In this document: in pieces, positions 2,154-64,000 of the stretch
How positions within the stretch are numbered: position 1 is the first letter of the stretch
How the letters are laid out: each line of letters opens with the position of its first letter
Assembly (NCBI GenBank): GCA_965220745.1
Contig: CBDCQT010000012.1
Coordinates: forward strand, 192,001-256,000
DNA length: 64,000 nt
Reading direction: 5' to 3'
Source of the DNA: Alphaproteobacteria bacterium
Lineage (GTDB): Bacteria > Pseudomonadota > Alphaproteobacteria > UBA828
Made by a program: the position numbers and the translations under genes
Notes under the pieces: model-generated
The model's input: the letters and a program-made list of their open reading frames with translations, nothing else
Databases searched by the model: none
What the model was told of the DNA's origin: nothing

Positions 2154-2194
2154 TGTCCAGCTCATAGCGCCGCAGTGCCTTAGTGGAGTAGCTC

Positions 2195-18034: not shown

Positions 18035-18048
18035 GCCCTCCAGCCGCG

Positions 18049-20372: not shown

Positions 20373-21419
20373 CTACGTTCGCGATGCGAAGGTCGTGAAC
20401 CAGGTGCGCAGACGCTGGAATTGCTGCCCCGGCGGCGTGCGCAGTGCACTGCCGACCTTGGGAAAGAGGCTCTCCAGCCCGCCCGGCAGGAAGATGAGGA
20501 AGAAGATCAGAACGGCGCCGAACATCAGAGGGCGCCATTCCAGCAGCGGCCGGCTCCATTCGAAGGCGATGGTCACCACGACCAGTCCCACGATCGGCCC
20601 CCAGAAGGTCGCCGTTCCGCCGACCACCACCCAGATGATCAGATAGATCATCGTGGTCAGGTCGAAGTTTCGCGGATCGATCGAGCCCATTCTGTAGGCC
20701 AGCAGAGCGCCGGCAATACCGGCAAAGAACGCGCCTGTGATAAAGGCGAGGCTGCGGTACCGCGCAACGTCGATGCCGACGCACTCGGCGAGAAGATCGT
20801 CGCTGTGGATCGACTTCCAGGCGTTGCCGATCCGCGATTTGTCGAGCCTCCACATGATGAAGACGGCGGCGAGCATGACGATGAAGCAGGTGAAGTAGAA
20901 CGGCACCGGCGGCGAGAGCCTGAGCCCCACGATCTCCGGCGACGGAATATTGATGATCCCTCGCGTGCCGCCGAACGGAAACTGCACCTTTACCCAGATG
21001 AGCCGCACCAGCTCACCCATGGCGAAGGAGGCGATAAAGAAGCCGAAGCCTGCCGTTCGCAGCAGCGGGATGATGAAGGCCGCGCCCACGATCGCGGCGG
21101 TGATCCCGGCCATCGGCACGACGACCCCGAAGGGCAGGCCGGCATGCTTTGCAATCAGCGCCGCGCCATAGGAGCCCGCGCCCATCAGCACGACATGGGC
21201 GAAGCTCCAGTCCCCGGTCGTGGTGATGAGCCGATAGCTCGTCACCATGATGACGTTGATGAAGAAAACGATCGCGAGCTCGCGGTGGTAGGGCTTCAGC
21301 TCGAAGCCGAGGACGCACAGAACGGCGAGCACCGCGGCGAGGAGGAGCAACGGCGCGATCCGCCGCAGCGCGGTCGCGGACGTGAGGCCCGTGCTGGCTA
21401 CCTCGTCAGGCGCGCTCAC
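20373..21419 (-). CDS. livM: Branched-chain amino acid-type ABC permease
   Basis: Multiple TM helices; GGTRGI, SRIGNAWKSI, VVVGG...GPIVG. Confidence 0.85.
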   Translation of the reverse strand: MSAPDEVASTGLTSATALRRIAPLLLLAAVLAVLCVLGFELKPYHRELAIVFFINVIMVTSYRLITTTGDWSFAHVVLMGAGSYGAALIAKHAGLPFGVVVPMAGITAAIVGAAFIIPLLRTAGFGFFIASFAMGELVRLIWVKVQFPFGGTRGIINIPSPEIVGLRLSPPVPFYFTCFIVMLAAVFIMWRLDKSRIGNAWKSIHSDDLLAECVGIDVARYRSLAFITGAFFAGIAGALLAYRMGSIDPRNFDLTTMIYLIIWVVVGGTATFWGPIVGLVVVTIAFEWSRPLLEWRPLMFGAVLIFFLIFLPGGLESLFPKVGSALRTPPGQQFQRLRTWFTTFASRT

Positions 21420-22275
21420 GGCCGAGCAGCCCCTGCGGGCGAACGATCAGAGTGAGCGCCATGAAGCCGACGCCAACCATCGTCGCGATCAGGTTGTCGG
21501 TCACCGTCGTGACGAAGGTGTGGATGAAGCCGAGGATGACGGCCGCCAGGATCGCGCCTTCGATGCTGGCCATGCCGCCCACGATCACGACCACGAAGGC
21601 GATCAGGATGACCCCGTGGCCCATGTAGGGCGTGACGGAATGGATCGGCGCCATCAGCGCGCCGGCGAGCCCCGCCGAGGCGCCGGCGAGCGCCATCGCC
21701 AGCGCCGTCATGCGGTTGGTGCGGATGCCCTGCAGTGCGGCGATTTCGGGATCCTGCGCGCAGGCGCGCAGCGCCTTGCCCAGCTTGACGCGATAGAGGA
21801 AGAAGCGCAGCGCGAGCAGCATCGCGAACGCGCAGGGGATGACGATGAGACGCTGCCAGCCGATCGTGGCGTCGCCCACGTCGGCAGCGCCCATGTAGGG
21901 TGTTGGAATGCTCTTGGCGATGCCGACGCCCCAGATCTGTCCCGCCAGCACTTGCAGGATGAACGCAAGCCCAGCGGTGGCCATGAAACCGGCCAGGATG
22001 TTCTTTCGCGTCGGCCGGAAGATCAGGCGCTCCGCCACCAACCCGAACAGTGCCACGATCGGGATCGCAAGGATGACTGCGAGCGGGAACGGCAGGCCGA
22101 CGAGCGCGTAGAGAACGTAGACGCAGTAGGCGCCGACCATGAAGAACTCGCCATGGGCGAAGTTCGCCATCTTCATGACGCCGAACGCGAGCGCCAGTCC
22201 GACCGCCACGAGCGCATAGATCGACGACGCCACAACGGAGTTCAGCAGCGTCTGGATCAGGGTAACGGTGTCCAT
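21406..22275 (-). CDS. livH: Branched-chain amino acid-type ABC permease
   Basis: IYALVAVGLALAFGVM...NFAHGEF, LGKALRA, VIVGGMASI, RPQGLLG. Confidence 0.9.
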   Translation of the reverse strand: MDTVTLIQTLLNSVVASSIYALVAVGLALAFGVMKMANFAHGEFFMVGAYCVYVLYALVGLPFPLAVILAIPIVALFGLVAERLIFRPTRKNILAGFMATAGLAFILQVLAGQIWGVGIAKSIPTPYMGAADVGDATIGWQRLIVIPCAFAMLLALRFFLYRVKLGKALRACAQDPEIAALQGIRTNRMTALAMALAGASAGLAGALMAPIHSVTPYMGHGVILIAFVVVIVGGMASIEGAILAAVILGFIHTFVTTVTDNLIATMVGVGFMALTLIVRPQGLLGRERA

Positions 22276-50637: not shown

Positions 50638-50784
50638 AGCGCGTCCGTCTTTGACGGACGCGCGACAGGCCGCGACCGCGGCCCGCCGCTTATGCGGCGC
50701 CCTCGCGGAGGCGCCGGCCGTGGGCCGGCTGCCGTGAGCGACGAATCGCTAGAGCGTTTCCGTGTGAAGCGGAAACGCTCTAGC
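50634..50784. repeat. CIR/BRU-RS-like palindromic intergenic repeat
   Basis: TTAGAGC at the left end, internal hairpin GCGCGTCCGTC-TTT-GACGGACGCGC, and a 15-bp stem GCTAGAGCGTTTCCG...CGGAAACGCTCTAGC at the right end. Confidence 0.6.
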
Positions 50785-51568
50785 CCCAGACCGCCGGGTC
50801 CTTGAGGTAGTCGTGCACCACGCGGCCGAAGTTCAGGTCGAAGTCGACGACGGCGAAGAAGCCGCCCAGGATGCGCACGGGCGCCAGCTGATGCCATGAA
50901 TCGGCGGCGGTGCTCGCGAGCGTGAGCGCGGCACGGCCCGCGTAGAGCTCGGGGCTGCCGTCTCCGCTCTTGCGCAGCGCGCCCGTCACGTCGAGCCGCA
51001 CCAGCTCCGAGACGCTCGGTCGCTCCGCCGTCTCCGCGCTCGGGATGTGGCGGTAGGAAAGCACCGGCGATTCGGCAAGCTCGTCGGGCGAGGCCTTGCG
51101 GTCGCACACCATCGAGGCAGTCATCAGGCGCTGCCCGCGCGGCCGTTCCACCGTAAGCAACAGTTGCTCCATATAGGGCCTGACGTCGCCGCCCCAGTTG
51201 TGCTCGATCACGGCGACCTTCTTGGCGTAGCCCCAGATCTCGCGGCCGGCGCCGAGAGGGATATCGTTATCGACCAGGATCGCCGGCTGATACATGTAGC
51301 GCGTACCGTGCAGCGTCACGTCGACCATGACGAAGGCCTCGTGATAGGGGCCGAAGGCCGAGAACGGGACCCAGCGCGCCCACGAGGTGCAGATTACCGG
51401 ATCGTCTGCCGGCTCCACGTGGGGCGGCAGCAGCTCCACCACTGCGGTGCTGTCAGCCTCGTAGCGGATCATCAGGTCCTGCACGCCGCGGAAGGGATAG
51501 GGTGGGGCCTCATACATCGGGCCGCCCAGCGGCATGCTGAAGTGGCGCTTGAAGGTGGCGATGTCCAT
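50780..51568 (-). CDS. Acetoacetate decarboxylase family protein
   Basis: FSMP...PPYPF, SAFGPYHEA, GREIWGYAKK (Schiff-base Lys), VVHDYL. Confidence 0.88.
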   Translation of the reverse strand: MDIATFKRHFSMPLGGPMYEAPPYPFRGVQDLMIRYEADSTAVVELLPPHVEPADDPVICTSWARWVPFSAFGPYHEAFVMVDVTLHGTRYMYQPAILVDNDIPLGAGREIWGYAKKVAVIEHNWGGDVRPYMEQLLLTVERPRGQRLMTASMVCDRKASPDELAESPVLSYRHIPSAETAERPSVSELVRLDVTGALRKSGDGSPELYAGRAALTLASTAADSWHQLAPVRILGGFFAVVDFDLNFGRVVHDYLKDPAVWG

Positions 51569-51592
51569 GGCGGGTTTCCCTGGCGCGCGGGC

Positions 51593-52366
51593 CTAGCCGT
51601 TTTCCGTGTCGAGCGCGGACCAGTCGTCGAGCCTGCCGTAGAGGTAGGGCACAAATTCATCGGCCGGCAGGCGGGCCAACGGACGGCAGGTGGAAAGCAG
51701 GTCGCCCTCGATGTAGGAGGCGCCGCGCACCTCGCAGACCTCGATGTCGGCCAGCGGATCGTGCGCCGTCGAGCGCAGCGCGAGCGTGCCGGTCCCCTCG
51801 CGTCGCACCGTCAGATGATTGTCGAACTCGGCGAGCGTCAGCACGGGATCGTCCTCAAGGCCTGTACCGGTGCAGGACGGCAACGCCTTGATGTTGAAGT
51901 TGGCGCCCGTCTCGCGGCCAGCCTCACGCTCATGCGGCAGCGTCGCCTCGATCTCGATCACGCGTGTACCGAGCCGCTCGATATAGCCGTGCATGGCATT
52001 GCCGCGGCGCTGTAGGCGCGTCGTGGCCTGCTTCTTCGGCTCGCCGAAGAGGTCGCGCCCGAAGATGATCGCGTGGTCCTGATCCATAAACATCGCGAGC
52101 ACGTAGGGCGCCTCGATCTCCCCGTGCCGGGCCATGACGTAGATCGCGCCACCAGTGAAGTCAGCAACACAGTTGGAGCGCCAGCGGCCCACCATCGCGA
52201 TCACCAGCGGCTCCGCCACGGGCTCCAGCCCCGGCGGCAGGACCTCGGCCACGATCTCAGTCCGCGTGAGGAAATCGATCATCAGCATCTCGGCACCGAC
52301 GAAGCGCGGCCGCTTCATCACTGCCTCGATGCGCTTTACCTCCTCGGGCGTTTTCACGAAGCCCAT
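51593..52366 (-). CDS. Acetoacetate decarboxylase family protein
   Basis: VLPPGLEP, YVLAMFMD, GRDLFGEPKK, HDPL. Confidence 0.85.
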   Translation of the reverse strand: MGFVKTPEEVKRIEAVMKRPRFVGAEMLMIDFLTRTEIVAEVLPPGLEPVAEPLVIAMVGRWRSNCVADFTGGAIYVMARHGEIEAPYVLAMFMDQDHAIIFGRDLFGEPKKQATTRLQRRGNAMHGYIERLGTRVIEIEATLPHEREAGRETGANFNIKALPSCTGTGLEDDPVLTLAEFDNHLTVRREGTGTLALRSTAHDPLADIEVCEVRGASYIEGDLLSTCRPLARLPADEFVPYLYGRLDDWSALDTENG

Positions 52367-52401: not shown

Positions 52402-53109
52402 TCAGGCGCCCAGATAGGCGCGGCGCAGCCGCTCCGAATCCCTGAGCGCGTCGACGGTGCCGCTGAAGCTGACCTCACCGCCGGAGATGACGGTCCCGTT
52501 GTCGGCGACCCGGAGCGCGAAGTCCGCGTTCTGTTCGGCGACGACGATGGTGAGGCCCAGAGATTTGAGCGCGCGGAAGGTGTCGACGAGCGTGTTGATG
52601 ATGGCGGGCGCGAGGCCCAGCGTCGGCTCGTCCACCATGAGTAGCCTGGGCTGCGCCATCAAGCCGCGCGCAATGGTGAGTTGCTGCTGCTCTCCGCCCG
52701 AGAGCGTGCCGCCTGCTTGCCGGGCGCGCTCCTTGAGGATGGGGAACATCGCGTAGTTGCGCTCGATCAGCTCGCGCGTCTTCGCCCGTTCGCGGATGTG
52801 CACCGTGGCGCCCACCAGCAGATTGTCGAGTACGCTCATCTCCGGGAAGATGCGCCGCCCCTCGGGCACGTGGGCGATCCCGTCCAGCACGATCCGGTCC
52901 GGCGATCGCCGGAGAAGCGACTTCCCTTCGAAGTCGATCTGCCCCGCAAGCGGGCGCATGAGGCCGCTGATCGCCCGCAGGATCGACGTCTTGCCCGCGC
53001 CGTTGGGGCCGAGCAATGCGCAGACTTCCCCCTGATCCACCGACAGGTTGAAACCGCGCACCACGCGGTTCACACCGTAGACGAGCGTCAGGTTGTCGAT
53101 CGCCAACAT
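52402..53109 (-). CDS. livF: Branched-chain amino acid-type ABC ATPase
   Basis: GPNGAGKT, HVPEGRRIF, LSGGEQQQL, DEPTLGL. Confidence 0.9.
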   Translation of the reverse strand: MLAIDNLTLVYGVNRVVRGFNLSVDQGEVCALLGPNGAGKTSILRAISGLMRPLAGQIDFEGKSLLRRSPDRIVLDGIAHVPEGRRIFPEMSVLDNLLVGATVHIRERAKTRELIERNYAMFPILKERARQAGGTLSGGEQQQLTIARGLMAQPRLLMVDEPTLGLAPAIINTLVDTFRALKSLGLTIVVAEQNADFALRVADNGTVISGGEVSFSGTVDALRDSERLRRAYLGA

Positions 53110-53110
53110 C

Positions 53111-53860
53111 TCAGTGCTCGCCGCCGAGATAGATGCTGACCACCTGCTCGTTTGAGCGGATTTCGTCAGGTGTGCCCGAGACCAGCAGCGCGCCGTGATG
53201 CATGACGAACAGGTACTCGCACACGTCCATGACTACTTCCATGTTGTGGTCGATCAAGAGCGTGGTAAGCCCGCCCCGCTGGCATTCGCGCAGGTGCTCG
53301 ATCAGGTCGAAGGACTCCTCCCGGCTGAAGCCGGCGAAGGGCTCGTCCAGCAGGAGCACCTTGGGGCCGAGCGCAAGCGCCTGCGCAATCTCGGCGCGCC
53401 GGCGCAGCAGGTGGCTGAGATCGGTTGGCAGGTCGCCGCGGACGGCCTCCAGTTCGAAGAACTCGAGCAGCGCGTCGCAGCGCACGTCCTCGTCGCCGGT
53501 GCAGCCGGGGTAGCTCAAGTCGCGGCCTCCGTGCCGGCCGCCCCAGATCATCGCTGTCCTGATGTTTTCCTCCACCGACTCTTCGGTGAAGAGGCGGTTC
53601 TTCTGGTAGGTGCGGCTGAGGCCGCTGCGCGCGACCTTGTAAGACGGCAGACGGTGGATCGGCTTCGAGTCCAGCGTCACCGTGCCCGCATCGGGCGCCG
53701 CATGCTTGGTGACGAGGTTGACGAAGGTGGTCTTGCCGGCGCCGTTGGGCCCGATCAGGCCGACCAGCGCGCCGCGCGGCACGTCGAAGCTCACGTCGCG
53801 CACGGCTTCGACGCCGCCGAAGCGCTTGCTCAGGTTGCGGACCTCGAGGATCGCGTCCAT
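53111..53860 (-). CDS. livG: Branched-chain amino acid-type ABC ATPase
   Basis: LSKRFGG, GPNGAGKTT, DEPFAG, DHNM, IYLG. Confidence 0.88.
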   Translation of the reverse strand: MDAILEVRNLSKRFGGVEAVRDVSFDVPRGALVGLIGPNGAGKTTFVNLVTKHAAPDAGTVTLDSKPIHRLPSYKVARSGLSRTYQKNRLFTEESVEENIRTAMIWGGRHGGRDLSYPGCTGDEDVRCDALLEFFELEAVRGDLPTDLSHLLRRRAEIAQALALGPKVLLLDEPFAGFSREESFDLIEHLRECQRGGLTTLLIDHNMEVVMDVCEYLFVMHHGALLVSGTPDEIRSNEQVVSIYLGGEH

Positions 53861-53866
53861 CGGCCG

Positions 53867-54904
53867 CTACTGTCCCCTCGCGCCGCCGCCGAGCGCCTCG
53901 GCCACTCTCTGCCTGATGCCGGCGGACTCGAGGGCGAAGCGCCAGAGCAGATTGGCGCCGCCCCAGAGTCCACCGCGGAAGAACAACACCGTGACCACGA
54001 TCAGGCCACCGAGGACGATTTGGTTCCACTTGCCGAAATCCTGGATGAACTGATCGAGAACCACCAGGAAGACGACTCCGATGGCGGGTCCCAACAGCGT
54101 GCCGGAGCCGCCAATGATGACGTAGATCACGTACTGGAAAGAGCTCCAGATGGTGAACGAGCTCGGGTCGATGGCGATCTGCATGGAGGCATAGAGTGCA
54201 CCGGAGAGGCCTGCGAAGCCGGCGGCGAAGACGAAGACAAGCTGCTTGTAGCGGAAGACGTCGAGGCCGCGCGCAGCCGCAAGGTCCTCGTCCTGGCGGA
54301 TCGCGCTCAAGGCGCGCCCCACGTGGCCGCGCGCGAGCCACCACGAGGAGAACGCCGCGATCACGAGGAAGAAAAGCACCACGATAAGGAAGCGCGCATT
54401 GGTGACGAAGGCGTAGTCGCCGAGCGCGGGCCGTGCGATGCCGGCGGTGCCGTGCGGACCGCCGGTGAACCACTCCCAGCTGTCGAACATGATGTAGAGA
54501 AGCTGGCCGACGGCGAGGGTGCCGATGGCGAAGTGGTAGCCACGCAGCCGGAACAGCGGATAGCTCAGCAGATAAGCGAGCGCGCAGGTAATGATGATGG
54601 CGCAGGGCAGCGCGGCCCAGAAGTCGAACTCGAACTGTTGCACCGTGAGCACGCCCACCACGTAGGCGCCGACACCGACAAAGCCGCCCTGACCCATGGC
54701 GAGGTAGCCCATGTGGCCCATGAGCAGCCCGAAGGGGATGACCGCGATCATCGCCGTGCCCGCCCCCACCAGCAGGCGCAGGTGATAGTTGTTGTCGACA
54801 GTCGCCCAGAGGATGCCGAGGAAGGCGAGCAGGACGAGCCAGCCGATCACGGCCCGCGTGCTGCGGTCTCGAAGCGATATCTGTGGGGCTCGCAAGATCG
54901 TCAT
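53867..54904 (-). CDS. livM: Branched-chain amino acid-type ABC permease
   Basis: RLRGYHFAIGTL, FTGGPHG, GRALSAIRQDE, IIGGSGTLLGP. Confidence 0.9.
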   Translation of the reverse strand: MTILRAPQISLRDRSTRAVIGWLVLLAFLGILWATVDNNYHLRLLVGAGTAMIAVIPFGLLMGHMGYLAMGQGGFVGVGAYVVGVLTVQQFEFDFWAALPCAIIITCALAYLLSYPLFRLRGYHFAIGTLAVGQLLYIMFDSWEWFTGGPHGTAGIARPALGDYAFVTNARFLIVVLFFLVIAAFSSWWLARGHVGRALSAIRQDEDLAAARGLDVFRYKQLVFVFAAGFAGLSGALYASMQIAIDPSSFTIWSSFQYVIYVIIGGSGTLLGPAIGVVFLVVLDQFIQDFGKWNQIVLGGLIVVTVLFFRGGLWGGANLLWRFALESAGIRQRVAEALGGGARGQ

Positions 54905-55776
54905 GCGTTGCGATCCGGCAGACCGAAGAGCCCCTGCGGGCGGATCATGAGAATCGCCAGAAGCACCAGGAAGGGCACTAGATCGCCGAGCTTGGAGCCG
55001 ACGTAGAAGACCGTGAGGTTGTAGAGAATGCCGAGGATGAGGCCGGCGACGATTGAGCCCGCGATGCTGCCCATCCCGCCGAATATGATGATGACCAGCG
55101 CCATGAGCAGCGGCTGAAAGCCCATGTCCGGCCGCACGTTGAACAGCGCGCCGAGCATGGCACCGGCAGCACCGCCGAGCGCGCCGCCGAGGAAGAACAC
55201 GATCGCCGCCACGCGGCGCTTCTTGATGCCCATCAGGGCGGCGGTCTCCTCGCCCTGGGCAGTGGCGCGCATGGTGCGCCCGAGGTGAGTGCGGTAGACG
55301 ACGAAATAGAGTAACGCGAACAGGACGAGCGTAATGGCGATGGTGACCAGTCGCGCGCCGTCGATACGAATGTCGCCTGCCGTCAGCGCCCAGTCCTCCC
55401 CCGGCATGGCGATCGGTCGCGCCTCGAAGTCGCCCCAGATGCGAAGCGCCGTGGTACCGAGAACCATGTAGAGGCCGAGCGACGCCAGCAGCTGGTCGGT
55501 CAAGGGCCGCCGTTGAAGGAAGCGGAAGACCGCGTTCTCCAGCACGATGCTGAGCAGCCCCATGACGATCATGGCGGCGAAGAAGCCGACGAAGAAATGG
55601 GTACCGAGCTGCGTCGCGACCACGTAGGCCACGAAGCCGCCCAGCATGATGAGCTGGCCGTGGGCGAGGTTGATGACCCTGTAGACGCCGAAGATGAGGG
55701 CGAGGCCCGCCGCCGCGACGGCAAGGTTCATGCCATAGGAGGCGCCGTAGATCAGCTGCTGGGCGAACGCGGTCAC
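54901..55776 (-). CDS. livH: Branched-chain amino acid-type ABC permease
   Basis: GLALIFGV...INLAHG, LGRTMRA, IIFGGMGSI, RPQGLFG. Confidence 0.9.
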   Translation of the reverse strand: MTAFAQQLIYGASYGMNLAVAAAGLALIFGVYRVINLAHGQLIMLGGFVAYVVATQLGTHFFVGFFAAMIVMGLLSIVLENAVFRFLQRRPLTDQLLASLGLYMVLGTTALRIWGDFEARPIAMPGEDWALTAGDIRIDGARLVTIAITLVLFALLYFVVYRTHLGRTMRATAQGEETAALMGIKKRRVAAIVFFLGGALGGAAGAMLGALFNVRPDMGFQPLLMALVIIIFGGMGSIAGSIVAGLILGILYNLTVFYVGSKLGDLVPFLVLLAILMIRPQGLFGLPDRNA

Positions 55777-55914
55777 AGCCGAAGCCGCTCCGGCTGCGCG
55801 TCAGCGCCCAGCGATTGAGGGCAAAAGAGAGGCGGCGCGCACCCTCCCGGGCAGGCGCCGCCCCAGCGTCTGCTCAACCTGCGGAATCCGGCCTAAACCG
55901 TCCCCGCGGCGGAG

Positions 55915-57294
55915 TTATTTCGGCAACTTGTCGCCGTACACGTACGGCCCGTAGAAGAGCTCGTCCCGGTAACTGATGCCGGTGTACCAGACCTTCTCGT
56001 CTGCGACGCCAATGATGTACTCGGTCGCGAAGAGCTGGCCGGTTTTCTCGCCGGTATCGGGCCGGGTGAAGAACTCGTTTGTCGGCCCGCGCAGGCCGTT
56101 GATCTTCAGGTTGCGCCAGGCTTCCACGATCTTGTCGTTGTCGGTGTGGTCGCCCGAGGCCTGCACGCCGTAGAGGAACCAGATGGCGGCGTCGTAGGCG
56201 CCGCGATCGAACGGGCTCGAGTTCCCGACTTCAGTCTCGCCGTACTTCGCGTTGTAGATCGGCACGTATTTCTCGACGCGCGCCAGCGTGGCTTCGTCCT
56301 GCGCCGGGTTGTGCTCTTGCCAGCCCCAGACGTAACCCGACGACATGTTGATGCCTTGATCCTTGGCCACGTCGACGAAGATCTGGAGCATCAGCACGTC
56401 GTTGCCCAGCAGGATGATCTCGCCGGTCTCGTAGTTGAGCCCCTGCTTCTTCATCTCATTCATGATCGCCAGCATGTCGGGGAAGATGTAGGCGTCCATC
56501 AGGACGATGTCGGGGTCCTGTTCCGCGAGCTTGGCGACGTGGGGCGCGAAGTCCGTGGTGCCGAAGGGATAGAGCACCGCCCAGTCGTGCTGGTACTCGT
56601 ACCGGCCGCCGCCCTTCTCTACCGCTTCCTGCCAGCCGATAGAGCCGTGCACGGTGTAGAGCTCGTTGCGGCCGATGAAGCCGAGCTTCTTGCGCCCATC
56701 GAAGAGGGCGGGATCGATGCCGTGCTCCGCCAGCCTCTCGGGCGTCTCATGGATGAACTCGCCCATGGCGTGCTTCTCGATCACGCCGGTGTCGGTGATG
56801 TCGTGGCCATACTCGCGGCCCACGGTCATCGCCGGGCTCGAGCAGATCGCGCAGATGCTGATGATTCCCTGCGGATCGAGGATCGACGCGGCAGACAGCA
56901 GCGCCGAATTCATCCGGGGGCCCCAGATCGCGCGGGCTTCGTCCTGCTCGACCAGGCGGATGACGGCGTCGATCGACTTCTTGTCTTCGGAGACGTCGTC
57001 ATAGGCCGTCCACTCAATGGGGATGACCTTGTCGCCGATCTTGAGGCCGCCGCCCTCGCACGGTTGCGGTGGTACGGCTTCGACAATGCAATCGCCTTTC
57101 ATGAACTGCTCGACGGCGAGCCTCACGGCCGCTTCCTCGAAGAGCCCCAGGAACGAAGCCGGACCCGACAGCGTGAAGACGCCGCCAAACTTGAAGGTGT
57201 CTTCCGCCTTGGCCAGTTGCGGGCCGGCCACGAGCCCCGCACAGAGCGCCGCACCCAGCAGCCCTGCCCGAATTACGCCAAAGGATGATGCCAT
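55915..57294 (-). CDS. LivJ/LivK-type periplasmic binding protein (divergent)
   Basis: Signal peptide; FGGVFTLSGPAS, TTDFAPHVAKL, AYDAA. Confidence 0.8.
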   Translation of the reverse strand: MASSFGVIRAGLLGAALCAGLVAGPQLAKAEDTFKFGGVFTLSGPASFLGLFEEAAVRLAVEQFMKGDCIVEAVPPQPCEGGGLKIGDKVIPIEWTAYDDVSEDKKSIDAVIRLVEQDEARAIWGPRMNSALLSAASILDPQGIISICAICSSPAMTVGREYGHDITDTGVIEKHAMGEFIHETPERLAEHGIDPALFDGRKKLGFIGRNELYTVHGSIGWQEAVEKGGGRYEYQHDWAVLYPFGTTDFAPHVAKLAEQDPDIVLMDAYIFPDMLAIMNEMKKQGLNYETGEIILLGNDVLMLQIFVDVAKDQGINMSSGYVWGWQEHNPAQDEATLARVEKYVPIYNAKYGETEVGNSSPFDRGAYDAAIWFLYGVQASGDHTDNDKIVEAWRNLKINGLRGPTNEFFTRPDTGEKTGQLFATEYIIGVADEKVWYTGISYRDELFYGPYVYGDKLPK

Positions 57295-57396: not shown

Positions 57397-58185
57397 TCAC
57401 GAGCCGAACGCCTCGATCAGGGGACCGCGCCACCCGTGATTGGTCATGTCCAGCTGGATCGGCGTGACCGAGATCGCGTTTTCGTGGATCGCGTGGAGAT
57501 CGGTCCCGGGGTGTTTGCCGCCGTCCTTGTAGCTGATCTCGACCCAGAAATAGGGCACGTGGCGCGTGTCGATGCGCCCGTCGATGGTGAAGGAGCCCGG
57601 CGGACGCTGCCCCTGCGTCGTGATATGGACACCGCTCACCGCTTCCGGCGGCGCATCCGGGAAGTTGACGTTGACCAGCGTGCCCGACGGCCAGTCGGGC
57701 AGGCGCATGAGGGTCTCGATCACGTCAGGTGCGAAGGCTTCCGCCGTGGCCCAGAGCGCTTCGTCCCCCATGGTGAACACTTGGCTGAGCGCGATCGAGG
57801 GGATGCCGAGCAGGGTTCCTTCCATCGCCGCAGCGATGGTGCCCGAATAGGTCATGTCCTCCGCGAGGTTCGCGCCGCGATTGATGCCGGAGAGCAGGAC
57901 CGTGGGCGGGCTCTCGGTCATCAGCTCGTGGATCGCCATCAGCGCGCAGTCGGTGGGCGTACCGTCCACTGCGTAGCGCTTCTCGCCCATCTGGCGCAGG
58001 CGGATCGGTGTGTGCATCGAGATGGAATGGCCGGCGCCGCTCCGCTCGTGATCCGGCGCGACGACCCAGACGTCGTCCGTCAGGCTTCGCGCGGTCGCCT
58101 CAAGTATCTTGAGCCCCCTGGCGTGGATGCCGTCGTCGTTGGTGACCAGGATGCGGTGGTGGGAGAGATCGCTCTCCGCTGGCAT
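57397..58185 (-). CDS. surE: 5'/3'-nucleotidase SurE
   Basis: RILVTNDDG, ERSGAGHSIS, GTPTDC, SGINRGANL, YSGTIAAAMEG, ISVTPIQLD; ATG 58185. Confidence 0.95.
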   Translation of the reverse strand: MPAESDLSHHRILVTNDDGIHARGLKILEATARSLTDDVWVVAPDHERSGAGHSISMHTPIRLRQMGEKRYAVDGTPTDCALMAIHELMTESPPTVLLSGINRGANLAEDMTYSGTIAAAMEGTLLGIPSIALSQVFTMGDEALWATAEAFAPDVIETLMRLPDWPSGTLVNVNFPDAPPEAVSGVHITTQGQRPPGSFTIDGRIDTRHVPYFWVEISYKDGGKHPGTDLHAIHENAISVTPIQLDMTNHGWRGPLIEAFGS

Positions 58186-58304
58186 GGCGGGGATCCTTTC
58201 GGGCACGCGCGGCGGGGGCGGCAGTCTCTTCGCCGTGCCAACAGAGCGCAAGGACGCTTCCGAGTAACGCTGAAATGCGGGGCCGGCGATGCGGTGTGCC
58301 GGCA

Positions 58305-58333
58305 TTGACAGCCCAAAGGGCGATCCGCATGTT
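58305..58333 (+). promoter_or_regulatory. Candidate sigma70 promoter for the PEP-utiliser operon
   Basis: TTGACA-N17-CATGTT, about 40 bp upstream of the GTG start. Confidence 0.35.
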
Positions 58334-58371
58334 GGCGCCTCCGTTCCGGCGAGCCTGCCCTGGGGGAGAGA

Positions 58372-59124
58372 GTGGCCAAGCTTTACGTGGACACGGACAA
58401 GTACGGCGACCAGGCACACTCGCCCACCGTCGAGGCCTTCCACAGCGCGATAAAAGACCTAGTAAGGCGCCGCCTCGACGAGAGCGGGGTCGACTGGAAC
58501 AGCTTCGTCTTCGACAAGTCCTACGATCTCATCACCGCGGCCGACTTCGAGGAGATCGAGAGGAAGCTGCTCGACGCCGGGCACCGCTACGACTTCTCCG
58601 CCGTAATCTCGGTGAACGAACGGCCCGAGGCCTACAAGCCGGCCGAAGGCATCCTGGGCGACGACCCTGACTGGACCATGGAGCATCCGGACGCGCCCTC
58701 CGCCGAAGCCGATGCGGAGGGCCGCGCCCTCTGCGGCGTCGGCGACAACGTGATGCGCGTCTCCGAGAATACCGTGGGCACCGCGCGCTACGTCCGTTCC
58801 AGCAGCCAGGTCATGCACTACCTCGGAGACGGCGTACCGCCGGAGACCATCGCCATCATCGATGACTCTGGTGGCACACTGACGGCGCCAATCCTGGAGC
58901 AATTCACCGGCATCATCTGCATGGGCGGCACGGTGCGCTCCCACCTCGGCATTCTATCGCGGGAATACGGTATTCCCTGCTTCATGAATGCCAAGATTAC
59001 TGGGATCAAGGAAGGCCAGCGGGTGGAGATGGAAACGGCCGCGGCGGCCAAGACGGCTGAAGCCTACCAGAAGGGCGAGGAGATGACCGCCAACATCTGG
59101 AAGCTGGCACAGGAGGCTTCGTGA
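58372..59124 (+). CDS. Stand-alone PEP-utilising phosphohistidine (swivel) domain protein with an unknown N-terminal domain
   Basis: GIICMGGTVRSHLGILSREYGIPC matches the GGxTSHxxIxxRExGxP phospho-His motif. Confidence 0.85.
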   Translation: MAKLYVDTDKYGDQAHSPTVEAFHSAIKDLVRRRLDESGVDWNSFVFDKSYDLITAADFEEIERKLLDAGHRYDFSAVISVNERPEAYKPAEGILGDDPDWTMEHPDAPSAEADAEGRALCGVGDNVMRVSENTVGTARYVRSSSQVMHYLGDGVPPETIAIIDDSGGTLTAPILEQFTGIICMGGTVRSHLGILSREYGIPCFMNAKITGIKEGQRVEMETAAAAKTAEAYQKGEEMTANIWKLAQEAS

Positions 59125-60677
59125 TGGTCGGCGCACCTCGCCTCTCCTACGCCCAGCTGCTGGAAACCAACAACCTTCTGCAGACCTTCACCGACGAGAC
59201 CTACTGGCTCTGCGTCACGCGCACCGTGCAGGAATCGAAGCTCTTCCCGGTGCCGCCCTACATGCTGCTCTCCTACCTCAACGCCTTCTATCGCTATCCC
59301 TCGCTCTTGCGGAAGGTGGAGAGCGTGATGACGGCGGAAGAGATCGGCGACCGCGCCCGAGCAGGGCGCCCGCCCGGCAAGAGCGCCATGGGCTGGGGGA
59401 TGCCGGGCTTCTACTTGCTCGGCCGCGAGTGGCTCATCAACATGGGTCTGCTGCGGCCGCAGGACGCTGCCGAGGATGTTGTCTACCTGATGGACTTCTG
59501 GAAGCGCCTGCAGCTCTCCTGGCACCGCAACGACGGGCACATCACCAACAAGGAATTCGGCCACCGCTGTCAGATCCTGCCCGAGCGGCGGCTTCAGGTC
59601 TTCGAGTCCGACGCCTACGGCTGCGAGGCCGGCGATCCGCTGCACAGCGCGGCGACGCAGTTCATGGCTTCTGCGGCGCAATACGGATTTCTCGTGAGCT
59701 GCGAGAGCCGCATCAGCCTGCTCAATACCGGGCCCTACAAGCTGGCCGACGGCAACGAGATGATCGTCCGCGAATTCATGGACCTCGGCGAAGGCGACTT
59801 TCCCTGGCTCGACGACGTGGCGGCCGATATCCCCTACAACAATCTCACCGTCCCGATGCTGGTGAAGGACTGCCACTTCTACTTGGTCGACGACTGGGGA
59901 AGCTTCGAATCCGAGCCCGAGTTCCGGGCCGAAAACATCGTCGGCGTCGGCCTCTACACCTCCGACCCGCTCACCGACGGGCACATTCCGGTGGGAATGG
60001 AGAGTCGTGAGACCCTGACCGAGACCTTCCGCACGCTGGACGGGCTCTTCAAGGAGGCGACGGCGCGGCTCTGGAAGCGCATCGCGGGCTGGAGCCGCGA
60101 CCAGATGCTCGACGCGGGCGCGCTCACCTATTTCGGCATCTGCAAGGACCTCGCCCACGTCGCGGGCGTCTACGCCCAAGAGGACTGGATGCTGATCGAC
60201 GAACGGGCCGAGCGCTTCCGCCCCCTGCTCAACGACGAGTTTAGCCGCGATTGCCTGGGCGAATTGGTCGGGCTGCTGACGCTGCCGAGCCATCGCCTCT
60301 CCTCCTACAGCATGATGCAGCACGGCAACGGCCCGACCGGCATGTACACACCGATCCCCTACGCGGTCCTGGACGGCGAGGATTACGTGCCCACCTGCGG
60401 CCCGGTCTATCCTGGCGCCACCACGTTGCCGGCCAAGGCCGACCGCTACCGCACCAGCCAGGGCGTGCTGACGTTGGAGGACTATAACCATCGGGTCCGT
60501 GACTTCACGCCGCAGTCCGACCGGTATCGTTTCCTGGACGAGACCTGGCTCAAGTACAACCACGACACAGCGCGTGCCGACGAGATGTACCGGCACGAGC
60601 AGGTACGGGCGCGCAAGATCCAAGGTCGCGGGGCGTCGCTCGGCGCTGCGGAGCTGGCGGCGCTCCCCCGCGACTAG
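59121..60677 (+). CDS. Hypothetical 518-aa protein, no recognisable domain
   Basis: Long ORF with host-like codon usage; start overlaps the upstream stop (GTGA). Confidence 0.8.
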   Translation: MMVGAPRLSYAQLLETNNLLQTFTDETYWLCVTRTVQESKLFPVPPYMLLSYLNAFYRYPSLLRKVESVMTAEEIGDRARAGRPPGKSAMGWGMPGFYLLGREWLINMGLLRPQDAAEDVVYLMDFWKRLQLSWHRNDGHITNKEFGHRCQILPERRLQVFESDAYGCEAGDPLHSAATQFMASAAQYGFLVSCESRISLLNTGPYKLADGNEMIVREFMDLGEGDFPWLDDVAADIPYNNLTVPMLVKDCHFYLVDDWGSFESEPEFRAENIVGVGLYTSDPLTDGHIPVGMESRETLTETFRTLDGLFKEATARLWKRIAGWSRDQMLDAGALTYFGICKDLAHVAGVYAQEDWMLIDERAERFRPLLNDEFSRDCLGELVGLLTLPSHRLSSYSMMQHGNGPTGMYTPIPYAVLDGEDYVPTCGPVYPGATTLPAKADRYRTSQGVLTLEDYNHRVRDFTPQSDRYRFLDETWLKYNHDTARADEMYRHEQVRARKIQGRGASLGAAELAALPRD

Positions 60678-60718
60678 GCGCGCGCGCCTCTCCCTTCGCA
60701 TCCGAGCGGCCTGACCTC

Positions 60719-62212
60719 ATGCAGATCGGTGAGTACATCCGGCGCGCTGGCGCCATGTACGGCGAGGCGCTGGCGCTGACCGAAGGCGCACGCACGCTGA
60801 GCTTCCGCGAGTTCGATGCGGCGACGGATCGGCTCGGCAACGCGCTGCTGGCGCAGGGCTTCGAGCCGGGCGACCGCGTCGGCGTGCTGCTGCCCAACGG
60901 GATCGATTGTCTGATCGCTTACTACGCGCTCGCCAAGTGCGGCCTCGTGCGGGTCTCGCTCAACGTCCGCGAGACAGCGTCGGACCACCGCTACAAGCTC
61001 GGCGACAGCGGCGCGCGCGGCCTCATCCACGACGATGTCGACGATGCCGAGGGCTTCGGCGCGCCGATGGTCTATGGCCGCGAGGCGCTGCGCCGCCTCA
61101 TCGACGACGGAGCGTCCGGCGCCTGCCGAGTGGACCGCGACCTTGAGGCCCCCTTTCGCCTGGGCTTTACCGGCGGAACCACCGGCGCGCCCAAGGCGGT
61201 CACGCTGACCACGCTGGGCGAGACCGCGGAACTCGCGGCCTTTCTCATGGACCTGGTGCCTGATCTCGCACCGGGCGACCGCTTCCTCCACGCCGCTCCC
61301 ATCGCGCACGCGTCAGGCGCTTTCTTCCTGCCCTCCCTGGTGCGGGGTGTGCACCAGCTGATCATGCCGCACTTCGACGCCGCCGGCCTCATCACGATGG
61401 CGGCGAAGGCGCGCGCGACCCACACGTTTCTGGTGCCGACCATGCTGGCCATGATCATGGAGGAGCCCGCGCTGGAGACCGCCGACCTCGGCTTCAAGCG
61501 CATCTGCTACGGCGCCTCGCCGATCGCGCCGAGCCTCTTGGAGCGTGCCATGGCCCGCTTCGGCCCGGTCTTCGCACAGACCTACGGTCAGGCGGAATCC
61601 CCCATGGTGATCACCTTCCTCCGGCCGGAAGACCACGACCGCGTGGGCTCGTGCGGGCGGCCCTATACCACCGTCGACGTGGCAATCTTCGACGATGACG
61701 ACAGGCCGGTGCCCGCCGGCGAGCAGGGCGAGATCGTCTGCCGCGGCACCCAGCTCATGGCCCGTTACTGGAACCGCCCGGAAGAGACCGCCAAGGCTTT
61801 CCACAACGGTTGGCTCCATACCGGCGACATCGGTCGCATGGACGAGGACGGCTTCGTCTACATTCTCGACCGCAAGAACGACATGCTCATCAGCGGCGGC
61901 TACAATGTCTATCCCCGCGAGATCGAGGATGTGCTGCTGGCCCACGAAGGCGTCGTCGAGGCTGCGGTCGTGGGCTTGCCGGACGAAAAATGGGGCGACC
62001 GCGTCCACGCCGTGGTCGCTGGACGGCCCGGCCTGGACCCGGAGACGGTGCGGCAGTTCTGCCGCGAGAGACTCGCCGGCTACAAGTGCCCGAAGAGCGT
62101 CGAGATCTGGGACGCGCTGCCCAAGAGCGGGGCCGGCAAGCTCCTGCGCCGCGCGGTGCGCGACCGCGTTATCGCCTCCGCCGACGCAACGCCTGAGCGG
62201 CAGAGTGCCTGA
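60719..62212 (+). CDS. AMP-forming acyl-CoA ligase (ANL superfamily)
   Basis: FTGGTTGAPK, TYGQAE, LHTGDIG, RKNDMLISGGYNVYPREIE, LPKSGAGK. Confidence 0.93.
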   Translation: MQIGEYIRRAGAMYGEALALTEGARTLSFREFDAATDRLGNALLAQGFEPGDRVGVLLPNGIDCLIAYYALAKCGLVRVSLNVRETASDHRYKLGDSGARGLIHDDVDDAEGFGAPMVYGREALRRLIDDGASGACRVDRDLEAPFRLGFTGGTTGAPKAVTLTTLGETAELAAFLMDLVPDLAPGDRFLHAAPIAHASGAFFLPSLVRGVHQLIMPHFDAAGLITMAAKARATHTFLVPTMLAMIMEEPALETADLGFKRICYGASPIAPSLLERAMARFGPVFAQTYGQAESPMVITFLRPEDHDRVGSCGRPYTTVDVAIFDDDDRPVPAGEQGEIVCRGTQLMARYWNRPEETAKAFHNGWLHTGDIGRMDEDGFVYILDRKNDMLISGGYNVYPREIEDVLLAHEGVVEAAVVGLPDEKWGDRVHAVVAGRPGLDPETVRQFCRERLAGYKCPKSVEIWDALPKSGAGKLLRRAVRDRVIASADATPERQSA

Positions 62213-62215
62213 GCA

Positions 62216-62818
62216 ATGACCGACGCCTATCTCGTCCTGCACGGCCTCGCGATCAAGAAGCACGCGGATGCTGGTGCGGTCGCCGCCGCGCTTGGACTCG
62301 CCGAAGACGAGGTGCGCGCCATGCTGGAGGATGCAGTGACGAAGGGCCGTGCAGCGTGCGCAGGCGGGGCATATTCGCTCACACCCGTCGCCCGTGTGGC
62401 GCTCGACGGGGCCTATTCCAGGCTGTTCGCCGCGCAACGGACCAATGCAGCCTTCGCCGCTGCCCACGAGCGCTTCGAGGCGATCAATCGAGAGCTCAAG
62501 GCACTGATGACCGCGTGGCAGACCATCGAAATCGATGGCGAGAGCGTGCTAAACGATCACAGCAACAAGGACTACGACGACCGCCTGATCGACCGCCTCG
62601 GGGCCCTGCACGAGCGGGCCGAGGCGATCCTCCGGCAGCTCGCCGCCGGCCTGCCGCGCCTCGCGATCTACGCGCGCAAGCTGGAAGCCGCGCTGGAAAA
62701 GGCCGAGGACGGTGCCATCGAGTGGGTCAGCGGCGCGAAGATCGAGTCCTATCACACAGTGTGGTTCGAGCTTCACGAGGACCTGCTGCGGATCCTCGGC
62801 CGCACGCGGCAGGAATAG
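62216..62818 (+). CDS. Winged-helix plus helical-bundle protein (Rv1126c-like, associated with short PPDK genes)
   Basis: N-terminal wHTH-like segment; C-terminal SYHTVWFELHEDL motif. Confidence 0.7.
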   Translation: MTDAYLVLHGLAIKKHADAGAVAAALGLAEDEVRAMLEDAVTKGRAACAGGAYSLTPVARVALDGAYSRLFAAQRTNAAFAAAHERFEAINRELKALMTAWQTIEIDGESVLNDHSNKDYDDRLIDRLGALHERAEAILRQLAAGLPRLAIYARKLEAALEKAEDGAIEWVSGAKIESYHTVWFELHEDLLRILGRTRQE

Positions 62819-62820
62819 GC

Positions 62821-64000
62821 ATGGGTGCGTTTGACTGCTGGGTCCTCCCCCTCGATCGCGCCGCGCTGCCCGACCGCGCGCTCATCGGCGGCAAGGCATG
62901 GGGCATCGCCGTCATGCGCCACGCGGGCCTGCCGGTGCCGCCCGCCTTCGTCGTGACGACAGAGGCCTGCCGCGCCTATCTCGCGGAAGGCGCGCTGCCG
63001 GAGGGTCTCCTCGACGAGCTGCACGCCGGCATCACCATGCTTGAGACCGAGACCGGGCGTCGCTTCGGCGTGCCCGAGCGCCCGCTGCTGCTGGCCGTTC
63101 GCTCCGGCGCCGCCGTCAGCATGCCGGGCATGCTGGACACGGTGCTCAACCTGGGAATGAGCGAAGAGATCGAGGCGGCTCTAGCGCGGGAAAGCGGCGA
63201 CGCCGCCTTTGCCCGTGACACGCATCGGCGCTTCCACGAGATGTACGAGCGCACCGTGCTCAAGGCGGGGATCGACGGGCTCGCGCCCGAAGGATCCGTC
63301 GAAAATTGGCGCGCCGCCGTGGCGGCGGCTGGGGCCACGGGCAACGTGCCAACGGACCCGCGCGATCAGCTTTTAGGCGCGGTCAGCGCCGTCTTCGACT
63401 CCTGGAACGGCCGGCGCGCGCGGCGCTATCGCAAGCATCACGGGCTGTCCGACGACGCGGGCACTGCCGTCACAGTTCAGGCCATGGTGTTCGGCAACCT
63501 CGGCGAGAACAGCGGGACCGGCGTCCTCTTCAGCCGCAATCCACTCAGCGGGGCGCCCGAGCCATACGGCGAATACCTTGCCCGTGCCCAGGGCGAGGAC
63601 GTGGTCTCCGGCCAGCGGACGCCACAGGGACTGGATGCGCTGGCGTCGTCCCTGCCAGACGCGCACGCCGCCCTGATCGACGCCGCGCGCAAGCTCGAAA
63701 CCCTGAACCGGGATGTGCAGGACATCGAATTCTCGGTACAAGATGGCACGCTCTACCTGCTACAGACTCGCACCGCCGCGCGGGCCCCCGCCGCGGCCGT
63801 CCGCATCGCGGTCGATCTGGTGAACGAGGGAACCATTTCCACCGACGAGGCTCTCGCCCGCGTTAGTGCGAACCAGGTCCGCGCGCTGCTCATGCCGCGC
63901 CTTGCTGATGGCGCCGCCGAGACCGCCCCTCTTCTCGCGGAGGGAGAGGGCGCGAGCCCCGGCGTCGGCATTGGCGCGGCCGTGCTGGACGCCGATGCGG
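62821..64000 (+). CDS. Pyruvate phosphate dikinase-like protein, partial (ATP-grasp domain and start of the His domain)
   Basis: Absent from the ORF track because no stop lies in the window. From ATG 62821: IGGKA, LPVPPAF, VRSGAAVSMPGMLDTVLNLG, VQAMVFGN, QGEDVVSG, DIEF...LLQTR, GASPG. Confidence 0.9.
   Translation, partial: MGAFDCWVLPLDRAALPDRALIGGKAWGIAVMRHAGLPVPPAFVVTTEACRAYLAEGALPEGLLDELHAGITMLETETGRRFGVPERPLLLAVRSGAAVSMPGMLDTVLNLGMSEEIEAALARESGDAAFARDTHRRFHEMYERTVLKAGIDGLAPEGSVENWRAAVAAAGATGNVPTDPRDQLLGAVSAVFDSWNGRRARRYRKHHGLSDDAGTAVTVQAMVFGNLGENSGTGVLFSRNPLSGAPEPYGEYLARAQGEDVVSGQRTPQGLDALASSLPDAHAALIDAARKLETLNRDVQDIEFSVQDGTLYLLQTRTAARAPAAAVRIAVDLVNEGTISTDEALARVSANQVRALLMPRLADGAAETAPLLAEGEGASPGVGIGAAVLDADA

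Follow-up and report, generated by a model that had tools for sequence, protein, structure and literature searches.

Introduction

In a few lignin-degrading bacteria, ketones are phosphorylated before being carboxylated with biotin. In the Hpe pathway, 4-hydroxyacetophenone and acetovanillone are first phosphorylated by the kinase HpeHI; HpeCBA accepts the ketones for carboxylation only in phosphorylated form; HpeD then removes the phosphate, and HpeE and HpeF make and cleave the coenzyme A (CoA) ester (Dexter et al, 2022; PMC9618137). The acvABCDEF genes of Sphingobium sp. SYK-6 are homologous to the Hpe genes (Higuchi et al, bioRxiv 10.1101/2022.04.28.489975). Within the kinase, HpeI is an ATP-grasp domain, and HpeH combines a swivel domain with a domain of the rifampin-binding type (Dexter et al, 2025; PMC12167813). 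The pathway has a second kinase, the unrelated UPF0261 protein MarK (Hall et al, 2025; PMC12624787). In the view of Dexter et al, relatively few bacteria have the Hpe pathway, and the census in the MarK paper covered only MarK or AcvAB/HpeHI kinases (PMC12624787). Here we describe an operon in which a biotin-dependent carboxylase appears to be preceded by another type of kinase, built from four proteins that we call g1, g2, g4 and g5. Its first genes lie at positions 58,372 to 64,000 of a 64,000-nucleotide stretch from Alphaproteobacteria bacterium (GTDB lineage UBA828; assembly GCA_965220745.1, contig CBDCQT010000012.1, positions 192,001 to 256,000 of the forward strand), referred to below as the window.

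The best-studied relative of one of these proteins comes from Mycobacterium tuberculosis. Rv1127c (VadK) is a truncated pyruvate, phosphate dikinase (PPDK) whose autophosphorylation takes place on His422. Co-expressed with Rv1126c, the partner encoded in its operon, it co-purified with that protein and was separated from it by 2 M NaCl; it has been read as regulating the methylcitrate cycle (Pascoe et al, 2026; PMC13400623).

Results

The window holds the first part of a conserved operon

Five open reading frames (ORFs) on the + strand fill the right-hand end of the window: g1 (58372-59124; 250 aa), a carrier with a phospho-His swivel domain; g2 (59121-60677; 518 aa), a member of an unnamed family; g3 (60719-62212; 497 aa), an AMP-forming acyl-CoA ligase; g4 (62216-62818; 200 aa), a winged helix joined to a helical bundle; and g5, a short PPDK that starts at the ATG at 62821 and is cut by the window end at 64000 after its first 393 aa. 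All are co-directional, with a 4-nt overlap between g1 and g2 followed by gaps of 41, 3 and 2 nt. A first-pass annotation, made from the DNA letters alone, had given these coordinates and gaps, all of which were borne out. Its description of the products (a stand-alone His domain, an unknown 518-aa protein, an acyl-CoA ligase, a winged-helix/helical protein and a PPDK-type ATP-grasp protein) agreed with what we found using Pfam and AlphaFold.

To survey relatives, genome contigs (one genome for each of 185,579 species) were scanned with an alignment of g2 relatives. The scan gave 363 pattern matches; tblastn confirmed 349 of them, and the 80 closest loci were kept. These have g2 identities of at least 60% and belong to Alpha-, Beta- and Gammaproteobacteria. 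The counts given below for each gene come from tblastn of the proteins of the window and of its nearest relative, L002, against the 80 loci, counting only loci with enough flank. In L002, g2 is 98% identical to that of the window, and g5 is 91% identical over residues 7-392. The scan found the g2-type operon in marine, freshwater and soil bacteria.

The genes of the window proved to be strongly linked. In 77 of 77 loci g2 is directly preceded by a g1 gene; g4 is present in 62 of 67 and g5 in 55 of 60, in each case with a BCCP (biotin carboxyl carrier protein) gene directly after g5. The least conserved member is g3, found between g2 and g4 in 52 of 67 loci. Conserved homologues of each of the five ORFs occur, similarly ordered, elsewhere among the genomes, which indicates that these are real genes rather than chance ORFs.

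The window end cuts the operon. In relatives, four more genes follow g5, encoding BCCP (54 of 59 loci), biotin carboxylase (49 of 56), carboxyltransferase (51 of 54) and thiolase (47 of 52), and the gene order is kept across Alpha-, Beta- and Gammaproteobacteria. In L002 the BCCP gene overlaps the end of g5 by 4 nt and encodes a biotinyl-lysine motif; it is followed by genes for biotin carboxylase, a 486-aa carboxyltransferase (HMGL-like and PYC_OADA domains) and thiolase, and by a convergent short-chain dehydrogenase gene. Such a dehydrogenase gene stands beside the thiolase gene in 32 of 44 loci. The L002 thiolase is nearest to acetoacetyl-CoA-type thiolases, at a score under the cut-off. 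Judged by synteny, the five genes of the window are the first part of a widely conserved nine-gene operon. We found no published description of this operon, or of the g2 family, in the open-access literature.

The arrangement also occurs on plasmids and in rearranged form. Plasmid pRB98 of Rhodococcus oxybenzonivorans (L081), found in a plasmid collection, carries the full set with a g2 identity of 54%, and its operon also holds a DUF35/thiolase pair, a Y_phosphatase3 gene and an SRPBCC gene. On pSA1 of Novosphingobium resinovorum (L083) the set is shuffled, in the order g2, BCCP, biotin carboxylase, carboxyltransferase, ligase, SCPx thiolase, SurE, g1, g4, g5, and L009 has the carboxylase half in inverted orientation, some 7 kb downstream of g2.

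g5 is a short PPDK that ends before the barrel

The part of g5 in the window matches PPDK_N (PF01326, E 6e-43), and this fragment scores 530 bits on NF004531 (cut-off 456), a short 534-position 'PPDK' model that we take to have been built on Rv1127c. Its last residues in the window are where the swivel domain starts in the full-length orthologue of L002. That orthologue has 586 aa, with PPDK_N followed by a phosphoenolpyruvate (PEP)-utilizers domain (PF00391, residues 402-471), and it shows the catalytic His motif. A Pfam search found no PEP/pyruvate barrel (PF02896) in it. On NF004531 it scores 709 bits, with residues 4-579 aligned to positions 8-530 of the 534 in the profile; its score on the full-length PPDK model TIGR01828 is 500, against a cut-off of 843. 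The sequence evidence, taken from the orthologue for the part beyond the window, therefore identifies g5 as a short VadK-type PPDK and not the housekeeping enzyme of ~880 aa. The first-pass annotation had named such a full-length PPDK, with neighbours not co-conserved, as the finding that would tell against its reading, and had looked to the sequence beyond the window for the fate of the barrel; what that sequence offers, in the 91%-identical orthologue, is a short protein lacking the pyruvate-binding barrel, amid strong co-conservation. From its motif, g5 is predicted to autophosphorylate on His.

g2 represents a family without a name or a structural relative

Neither Pfam nor NCBIfam contains a family that matches g2. 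A g2 profile gave 0 matches at E<=1 among PDB sequences, and the AlphaFold model (pLDDT 81, pTM 0.84) gave nothing at E<=0.001 in a Foldseek search of the PDB, where structures of rifampin phosphotransferase are presumably present. The best TM-score was ~0.1, at which the top matches (TolC and others) are meaningless and were set aside. No usable match was found in the ESM Atlas, and none to the PRK08296 models of NCBIfam at E<=0.01. The family itself is large, with 988 homologues at E<=0.001, among which the best 120 share 64-96% identity with g2, and 433 cluster representatives at E<=0.001. Residues L41, Y47, P60, G101, R102, R197, Y206, W229, P266 and G349 are invariant even in relatives that are 23-30% identical. 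These searches and the model point to a new protein family and fold at the core of the system, and we propose that g2 is its substrate-binding and phosphoryl-acceptor subunit. One 356-aa protein (P0150), in which an N-terminal GTPase domain is joined to a segment matching g2's C-terminal third, probably reflects a chimeric assembly or gene call.

The carrier protein g1 is predicted to dock on g2

g1 comprises an N-terminal anchoring domain followed by the phospho-His swivel domain (PEP-utilizers mobile domain, PF00391, residues 158-220, E 8e-7), and a g1 profile found no matches among PDB sequences. His191 and the motif around it are invariant in 15 of 15 aligned orthologues. When g1 and g2 were modelled together, the complex reached a median score of 0.88, compared with 0.01 for the best of three controls. 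A mark of this kind was reached by 58 of 80 solved complexes and by 2 of 110 mismatched pairs, counts that are rough because the alignments were our own. The runs share at least 80% of their contacts, and the pLDDT of the partner is at least 85. On the g1 side, the modelled interface takes in the N-terminal domain and residues 185-191, including His191; on the g2 side it takes in segments 35-46, 106-113 and 361-378, with many invariant residues, among them ones in 35-46 and 361-374. Since PDB sequence and fold searches indicate that no similar complex has been solved, this result does not simply reproduce a known structure. The multimer prediction suggested in the first-pass annotation thus supports the idea that g1 binds g2.

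g4 is a candidate partner for both g2 and g5

The only Pfam match of g4 is a weak one to the FeoC winged helix. Its AlphaFold model (pLDDT 94.7) has a winged helix followed by long helices forming a helical bundle. Compared with the PDB by Foldseek, the model gave no full-length match, only winged-helix parts of IclR, MukE and methyltransferase proteins at E>=0.03; a g4 profile run against PDB sequences gave a single match, at E 0.65, which we regard as chance. His9, His115, His180 and His187 are invariant in 17 sequences, including actinobacterial ones. We propose that g4 is an adaptor or active-site partner between g2 and g5. In a search for homologues with the Rhodococcus g4 protein, the best 120 matches all came from actinobacterial genera other than Mycobacterium.

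The remaining member of the block, g3, has the two domains of an AMP-forming ligase (AMP-binding, PF00501; AMP-binding_C, PF13193), and its best NCBIfam models are fatty-acid and acyl-CoA ligases, all under their cut-offs.

Gene fusions join parts of the proposed kinase

In several lineages, parts that are separate in the window are found in one polypeptide. Among 17 distant g2 homologues, four carry a PEP-utilizers domain at the N-terminus, 12 lack any Pfam domain and one looks chimeric; fusions of g2 with g4 occur as proteins of ~720 aa. A 793-aa 'PEP-utilizing enzyme' of Rhodococcus opacus B4 is, by hhalign, a triple fusion, with the swivel His domain at residues 57-108, a g2-like core at 228-549 (E 1e-21) and a g4-like domain at 603-789 (E 1e-19). 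Among longer proteins, the g4 profile gave 109 matches, 83 of which carry PPDK_N and PEP-utilizers domains with the g4-like domain C-terminal to them, as in Nocardia elegans, where it follows a short PPDK at residues 514-700 (E 2e-35). Also among the 109 are g2-g4 fusions and fusions of g3 with g4, the latter being two AMP-binding ligases of 694 aa (P0393 and P0400). Two more, Enzyme-I-like proteins of 734 and 794 aa (P0495 and P0497), combine a g4-like domain with a His domain and a PEP-utilizers_C barrel.

Given the g1-g2, g2-g4, g4-g5 and g1-g2-g4 fusions, together with the g1-g2 complex model, the most economical reading is that g1, g2, g4 and g5 form one multi-subunit phosphohistidine dikinase. 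The tie between the 518-aa protein and the stand-alone His-domain protein, which the first-pass annotation had suspected, is thus upheld by two kinds of evidence, fusions and modelling.

Relatives of these genes were also seen in other settings. On plasmid pROB02 of R. opacus B4 (L082, 1-13773), the triple fusion is encoded together with a Y_phosphatase3 protein, two APH/EcKL-type phosphotransferases, a P450, alcohol and aldehyde dehydrogenases and a divergent short PPDK. Because this cluster lacks a carboxylase, the kinase family seems to serve other pathways as well. Upstream of the main cluster of pRB98, a second, paralogous module (L081:4902-9272) encodes a 125-aa His-domain protein, a 398-aa short form resembling g2, a 542-aa protein with an N-terminal His domain and a 381-aa hypothetical protein, beside genes for an acyl-CoA synthetase and a ribB-type product. 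A plasmid of Methylibium petroleiphilum PM1 (L086:8890-11779) carries a g2-like short form, a 153-aa hypothetical protein, a 149-aa His-domain protein and a member of the g4 family. The last of these is annotated as a 'MarR family regulator' and was assigned by hhalign (E 3e-26). This module adjoins genes resembling those for 2-hydroxyisobutyryl-CoA mutase.

Comparison with described systems

In the sources consulted, Hpe of R. rhodochrous GD02, Acv and XccBCA of Aromatoleum aromaticum all share with the present operon an ATP-dependent kinase gene beside genes for BCCP, biotin carboxylase, a carboxyltransferase of the pyruvate carboxylase type, an AMP-forming CoA ligase and an enzyme of beta-keto cleavage. 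Hpe and Acv also share the use of a swivelling phospho-His by the kinase. The proposed operon kinase is not HpeHI-like, given the lack of a Foldseek or PRK08296 match for g2; it consists of four proteins with two His domains, and its ATP-grasp part is of the PPDK lineage and has a swivel domain of its own. The later steps differ too: the operon has no HAD phosphatase of the HpeD/AcvF kind, and a thiolase takes the place of the hydrolase. CoA synthetase and beta-keto cleavage functions are present in both, the enzymes being of types unlike HpeE and HpeF, and the operon carboxyltransferase has Tyr where the carbamyl-Lys would be.

MarK-type clusters, with the gene order UPF0261-BCCP-BC-CT-HAD (BC, biotin carboxylase; CT, carboxyltransferase), were found on Sphingobium and Pseudomonas plasmids, and their carboxyltransferases are 39-40% identical to that of L002. 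MarK is a single-protein ATP kinase that has no phospho-His carrier, unlike the operon kinase. Since MarK and HpeHI/AcvAB serve the same pathway, the kinase that precedes this carboxylase is interchangeable.

VadK and g5 share the ATP-grasp domain and His, the lack of a barrel and an adjoining partner gene of ~200 aa, and the g5 orthologue matches NF004531 end to end. The order of the Nocardia fusion, short PPDK and then g4-like domain, is the same as that of Rv1127c and Rv1126c, and lends indirect support to a possible likeness of g4 to Rv1126c. VadK differs in having been described without a small-molecule acceptor, and neither g1 and g2 nor carboxylase genes come up in the passages of PMC13400623 that we drew on.

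Phenylphosphate synthase (PpsABC), CreHI and rifampin phosphotransferase resemble the operon kinase in having a split or modular ATP-grasp part, a swivelling His and an acceptor other than the barrel, and in them phosphate passes from ATP to His to a small molecule (PMC12167813). The acceptor g2 is of a different fold, with no detectable likeness to theirs, and in fused relatives of g2 the swivel His domain is N-terminal to the acceptor, whereas in PRK08296-type proteins it is C-terminal. The operon carboxyltransferase has the fold and most of the motifs of pyruvate carboxylase subunit B, OadA and 5S, and differs from them at the metal site. Finally, the acetone and acetophenone-type carboxylases AcxABC and Apc are analogous in function, in that, as described, they couple ATP-dependent phosphorylation of a ketone to its carboxylation to a beta-keto acid; they are unrelated, hydantoinase-type proteins that use neither biotin nor phospho-His.

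Flanking genes

Upstream of g1, and on the opposite strand, lies a gene for a SurE-type 5'/3'-nucleotidase/phosphatase (57397-58188, -; PF01975; NF001490, 331 bits against a cut-off of 233), whose start at 58188 was chosen from where the domain and homologue alignments begin. The 183-bp divergent intergenic region between the two (58189-58371) is the presumed promoter region of the operon. A consensus scan of these 183 bp found no sigma-70-like site, a purine-rich stretch resembling a Shine-Dalgarno sequence directly precedes the GTG of g1, and a terminator scan found no internal terminator above chance.

Just beyond SurE is a five-gene Liv-type ABC transporter (52402-57294, -), and beyond that are two paralogous genes of the acetoacetate-decarboxylase family (50780-52366, -). 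Because genes of this family are in the upstream flank of 22 of 51 related loci, the homologue may be part of an extended pathway. The transporter is not conserved and therefore gives no clear hint of the substrate; a profile search with its solute-binding protein found no PDB sequence match. In the upstream flanks (~800-4500) of three Rhodobacterales loci (L012, L047 and L057), the transporter is instead of the sugar type (Peripla_BP_4/CUT2). A second Liv-type permease pair in the window (20475-22215, -) is 28-36% identical to the pair at 53867-55776.

Other neighbours in the 80 loci are likewise less regular than the nine genes: an SCPx-type thiolase (29 of 60 loci), a second CoA ligase (29 of 66), SurE in the upstream flank (32 of 55) and a Y_phosphatase3 protein (18 of 51).

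Discussion

A proposed pathway

The results presented above suggest a general scheme, which we think rather probable by analogy with Hpe and Acv, whereby a four-component dikinase primes a ketone for biotin-dependent carboxylation, CoA ligation and cleavage. In this scheme g5, through its ATP-grasp domain and swivel His, would take phosphate from ATP, a step demonstrated only for its mycobacterial relative VadK. The phosphate would then reach the substrate at a site on g2, with the help of g4, either from the His of g5 or by way of the His of g1 docked on g2; we infer the ATP-to-His-to-His relay that the second route implies. Following the Hpe/Acv precedent, the three-component biotin carboxylase would carboxylate the acetyl methyl group of a phosphorylated methyl ketone. 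A phosphatase would remove the phosphate, SurE being a candidate in the present host, by a weaker link than those joining the other parts, and the Y_phosphatase3 protein in others. g3 would make a beta-ketoacyl-CoA, which the thiolase would split into acetyl-CoA and an acyl-CoA, and the ketone may come from a secondary alcohol through the short-chain dehydrogenase encoded alongside. By the same analogy, the phosphorylated molecule is most likely the substrate of the biotin carboxylase. That the phosphate goes onto a hydroxyl 'handle' of a hydroxy-substituted methyl ketone, as in Hpe, is a more tentative proposal within the scheme, which we regard as possible. The substrate, the phosphorylation site, the His-to-His step and the role of SurE are thus all things that we infer.

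A third type of kinase in the slot before the carboxylase is plausible because two unrelated types, HpeHI/AcvAB and MarK, already fill it. It is fair to say that the logic of the pathway (phosphorylate, carboxylate, ligate to CoA, cleave) has been published and that the kinase is new. The first-pass annotation had spoken of a phosphotransfer operon and a new enzyme system. The split PPDK-like enzyme with a new acceptor, and its co-conservation, hold up, and for the kinase 'new' is a fair word; the surroundings have turned out to be those of a biotin-dependent carboxylation operon cut by the window, and for the pathway logic, already in print, the word is too strong.

Several observations weigh against this scheme. 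The carboxylase and thiolase genes lie beyond the window, and their presence downstream is predicted from synteny with eight close relatives (L001-L008, except the short contig L003). In three loci (L050, L061 and L068) g5 or the biotin carboxylase is missing in cis, and in two (L067 and L076) little of the set follows g2. For the dephosphorylation step, a tblastn search with the HAD protein of L084 gave no match in the 80 loci or the window; the SurE gene, a common one with housekeeping duties, stands upstream in only 32 of 55 loci, and Y_phosphatase3 occurs in 18 of 51. The presence in g5 of a swivel His of its own leaves the need for g1 unexplained. Moreover VadK, the only relative of g5 to have been studied, was read by its authors as a regulatory kinase (PMC13400623).

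The carboxyltransferase raises a further difficulty. The best PDB sequence matches of the L002 protein (17298-18755) are 2NX9 (E 2e-60) and 5KS8 (E 4e-59), and its best NCBIfam match is pyruvate carboxylase subunit B, at 315 against a cut-off of 402. Lys178 (2NX9 numbering) is replaced by Tyr in 56 of 56 sequences and His209 by Asn in at least 48 of 60, with Asp17 and His207 retained. We take these four residues to be the metal ligands (carbamyl-Lys and His-x-His among them), the metal serving to stabilise the enolate in pyruvate carboxylase and OadA. Since the Lys and His positions are altered here, while the carboxyltransferases of the UPF0261-type (MarK-type) clusters keep both the Lys and His-x-His, the chemistry of the operon enzyme may differ from that of HpeB. 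The carboxyltransferase of Rhodococcus pRB98 has Glu at the Lys position.

Alternative explanations

The altered metal site figures in the alternative that survives best, which we nevertheless think unlikely: that chemistry of the PPDK type converts a simple methyl ketone of the acetone/butanone class into its enol phosphate, which then takes CO2 from carboxybiotin, making the system a biotin-dependent ketone carboxylase unrelated to AcxABC and Apc. The native reaction of the PPDK lineage to which g5 belongs makes an enol phosphate, and loss of the carbamyl-Lys, and usually of one His, might be tolerable if the substrate arrived already enolised. The nearness of the thiolase to acetoacetyl-CoA-type enzymes, though under the cut-off, the acetoacetate-decarboxylase-family genes upstream in 22 of 51 loci and the wide occurrence of the operon in marine, freshwater and soil bacteria would also fit. 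Against this, the recurrent phosphatase genes fit a phosphate that outlasts carboxylation, and relatives of g2 in carboxylase-free clusters with P450, dehydrogenase and phosphatase genes suggest phosphorylation of a hydroxyl. The ATP cost would be above that of the known acetone carboxylases, and we know of no biotin enzyme that uses an enol phosphate. Because of the Hpe/MarK precedent and the recurrent phosphatase genes, we rank this explanation below priming of a ketone as in Hpe. In its most specific form, to which we would give equally little credence, g2 and g4 would be a new catalytic module fed by two phospho-His carriers, turning plain acetone-class ketones into enol phosphates for the metal-site-altered carboxyltransferase.

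The reading placed on VadK suggests another possibility, that g5 and g4 form a regulatory histidine kinase that phosphorylates the carboxylase, thiolase or CoA ligase, or binds to them, and so tunes flux, with g1 and g2 as relay or sensor and no small molecule phosphorylated. VadK autophosphorylates, co-precipitates with enzymes from the methylcitrate cycle and was read as a regulator of flux (PMC13400623); g4 contains a winged helix, and PGAP or UniRef sometimes names its relatives MarR-type regulators. We consider this quite improbable. A strictly ordered operon with metabolic enzymes, and fusions of g4 to g2, g3 and g5, are typical of enzyme subunits; the gene before the carboxylase encodes a small-molecule kinase in three known sister pathways; and the invariant Arg, Tyr and Trp of g2 persist over distant relatives, as in a ligand site.

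The first-pass annotation had itself proposed that an ATP-His-His relay activates a small molecule linked to the CoA ligase. On such a reading the molecule would be the ligase's substrate or product (an acyl phosphate, for example), and the carboxylase would be functionally separate. The position of g3 inside the kinase block, between g2 and g4 in 52 of 67 loci, and the existence of g3-g4 fusions speak for such a link. Yet g3 is the most dispensable of the genes, being missing from 15 of 67 loci where the carboxylase genes stay, whereas those for BCCP, biotin carboxylase and carboxyltransferase are kept about as tightly as g4 and g5. AMP-forming ligases, moreover, need no extra phosphoryl donor. 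This proposal therefore has little to recommend it, and the ligase more probably acts later, on the way from the carboxylated compound. The remaining idea, an ordinary PEP-pyruvate-oxaloacetate node in which a split PPDK, with g2 replacing the pyruvate domain, works beside a three-subunit pyruvate carboxylase, as the PGAP name 'pyruvate, phosphate dikinase' for g5 orthologues and the best NCBIfam match of the carboxyltransferase might suggest, can be dismissed as highly improbable, given the barrel-free g5 (500 against 843 on the full PPDK model), a carboxyltransferase below its cut-off (315 against 402) and devoid of the carbamyl-Lys, a g2 unlike the PEP/pyruvate barrel, and a CoA ligase, thiolase and dehydrogenase left unexplained.

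Implications

If the priming of a ketone by a four-component dikinase is correct, a large family that has had no name, Pfam model or structural relative can be given a role open to testing, that of acceptor subunit in a new multi-protein dikinase. Current annotations of the components, such as 'pyruvate, phosphate dikinase', 'MarR family regulator', 'PEP-utilizing enzyme' and 'hypothetical protein', are misleading. The strategy of phosphorylating a ketone and then carboxylating it with biotin would extend beyond a few lignin degraders to many Alpha-, Beta- and Gammaproteobacteria and Actinomycetota, implying that its substrate is abundant in the environment. Should g2 and g4 instead prove to be a module making enol phosphates, marine and soil bacteria would widely possess a second, biotin-dependent way of carboxylating ketones, in which the beta and gamma phosphates of ATP may both be used productively through the two His domains; VadK-Rv1126c would then be the remnant of a small-molecule dikinase with an unrecognised acceptor subunit, and not a protein-regulating kinase. 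More generally, the operon offers a first metabolic context for truncated PPDKs of the VadK type and their 200-aa partner, and in this way bears on a protein reported as required for the virulence of M. tuberculosis.

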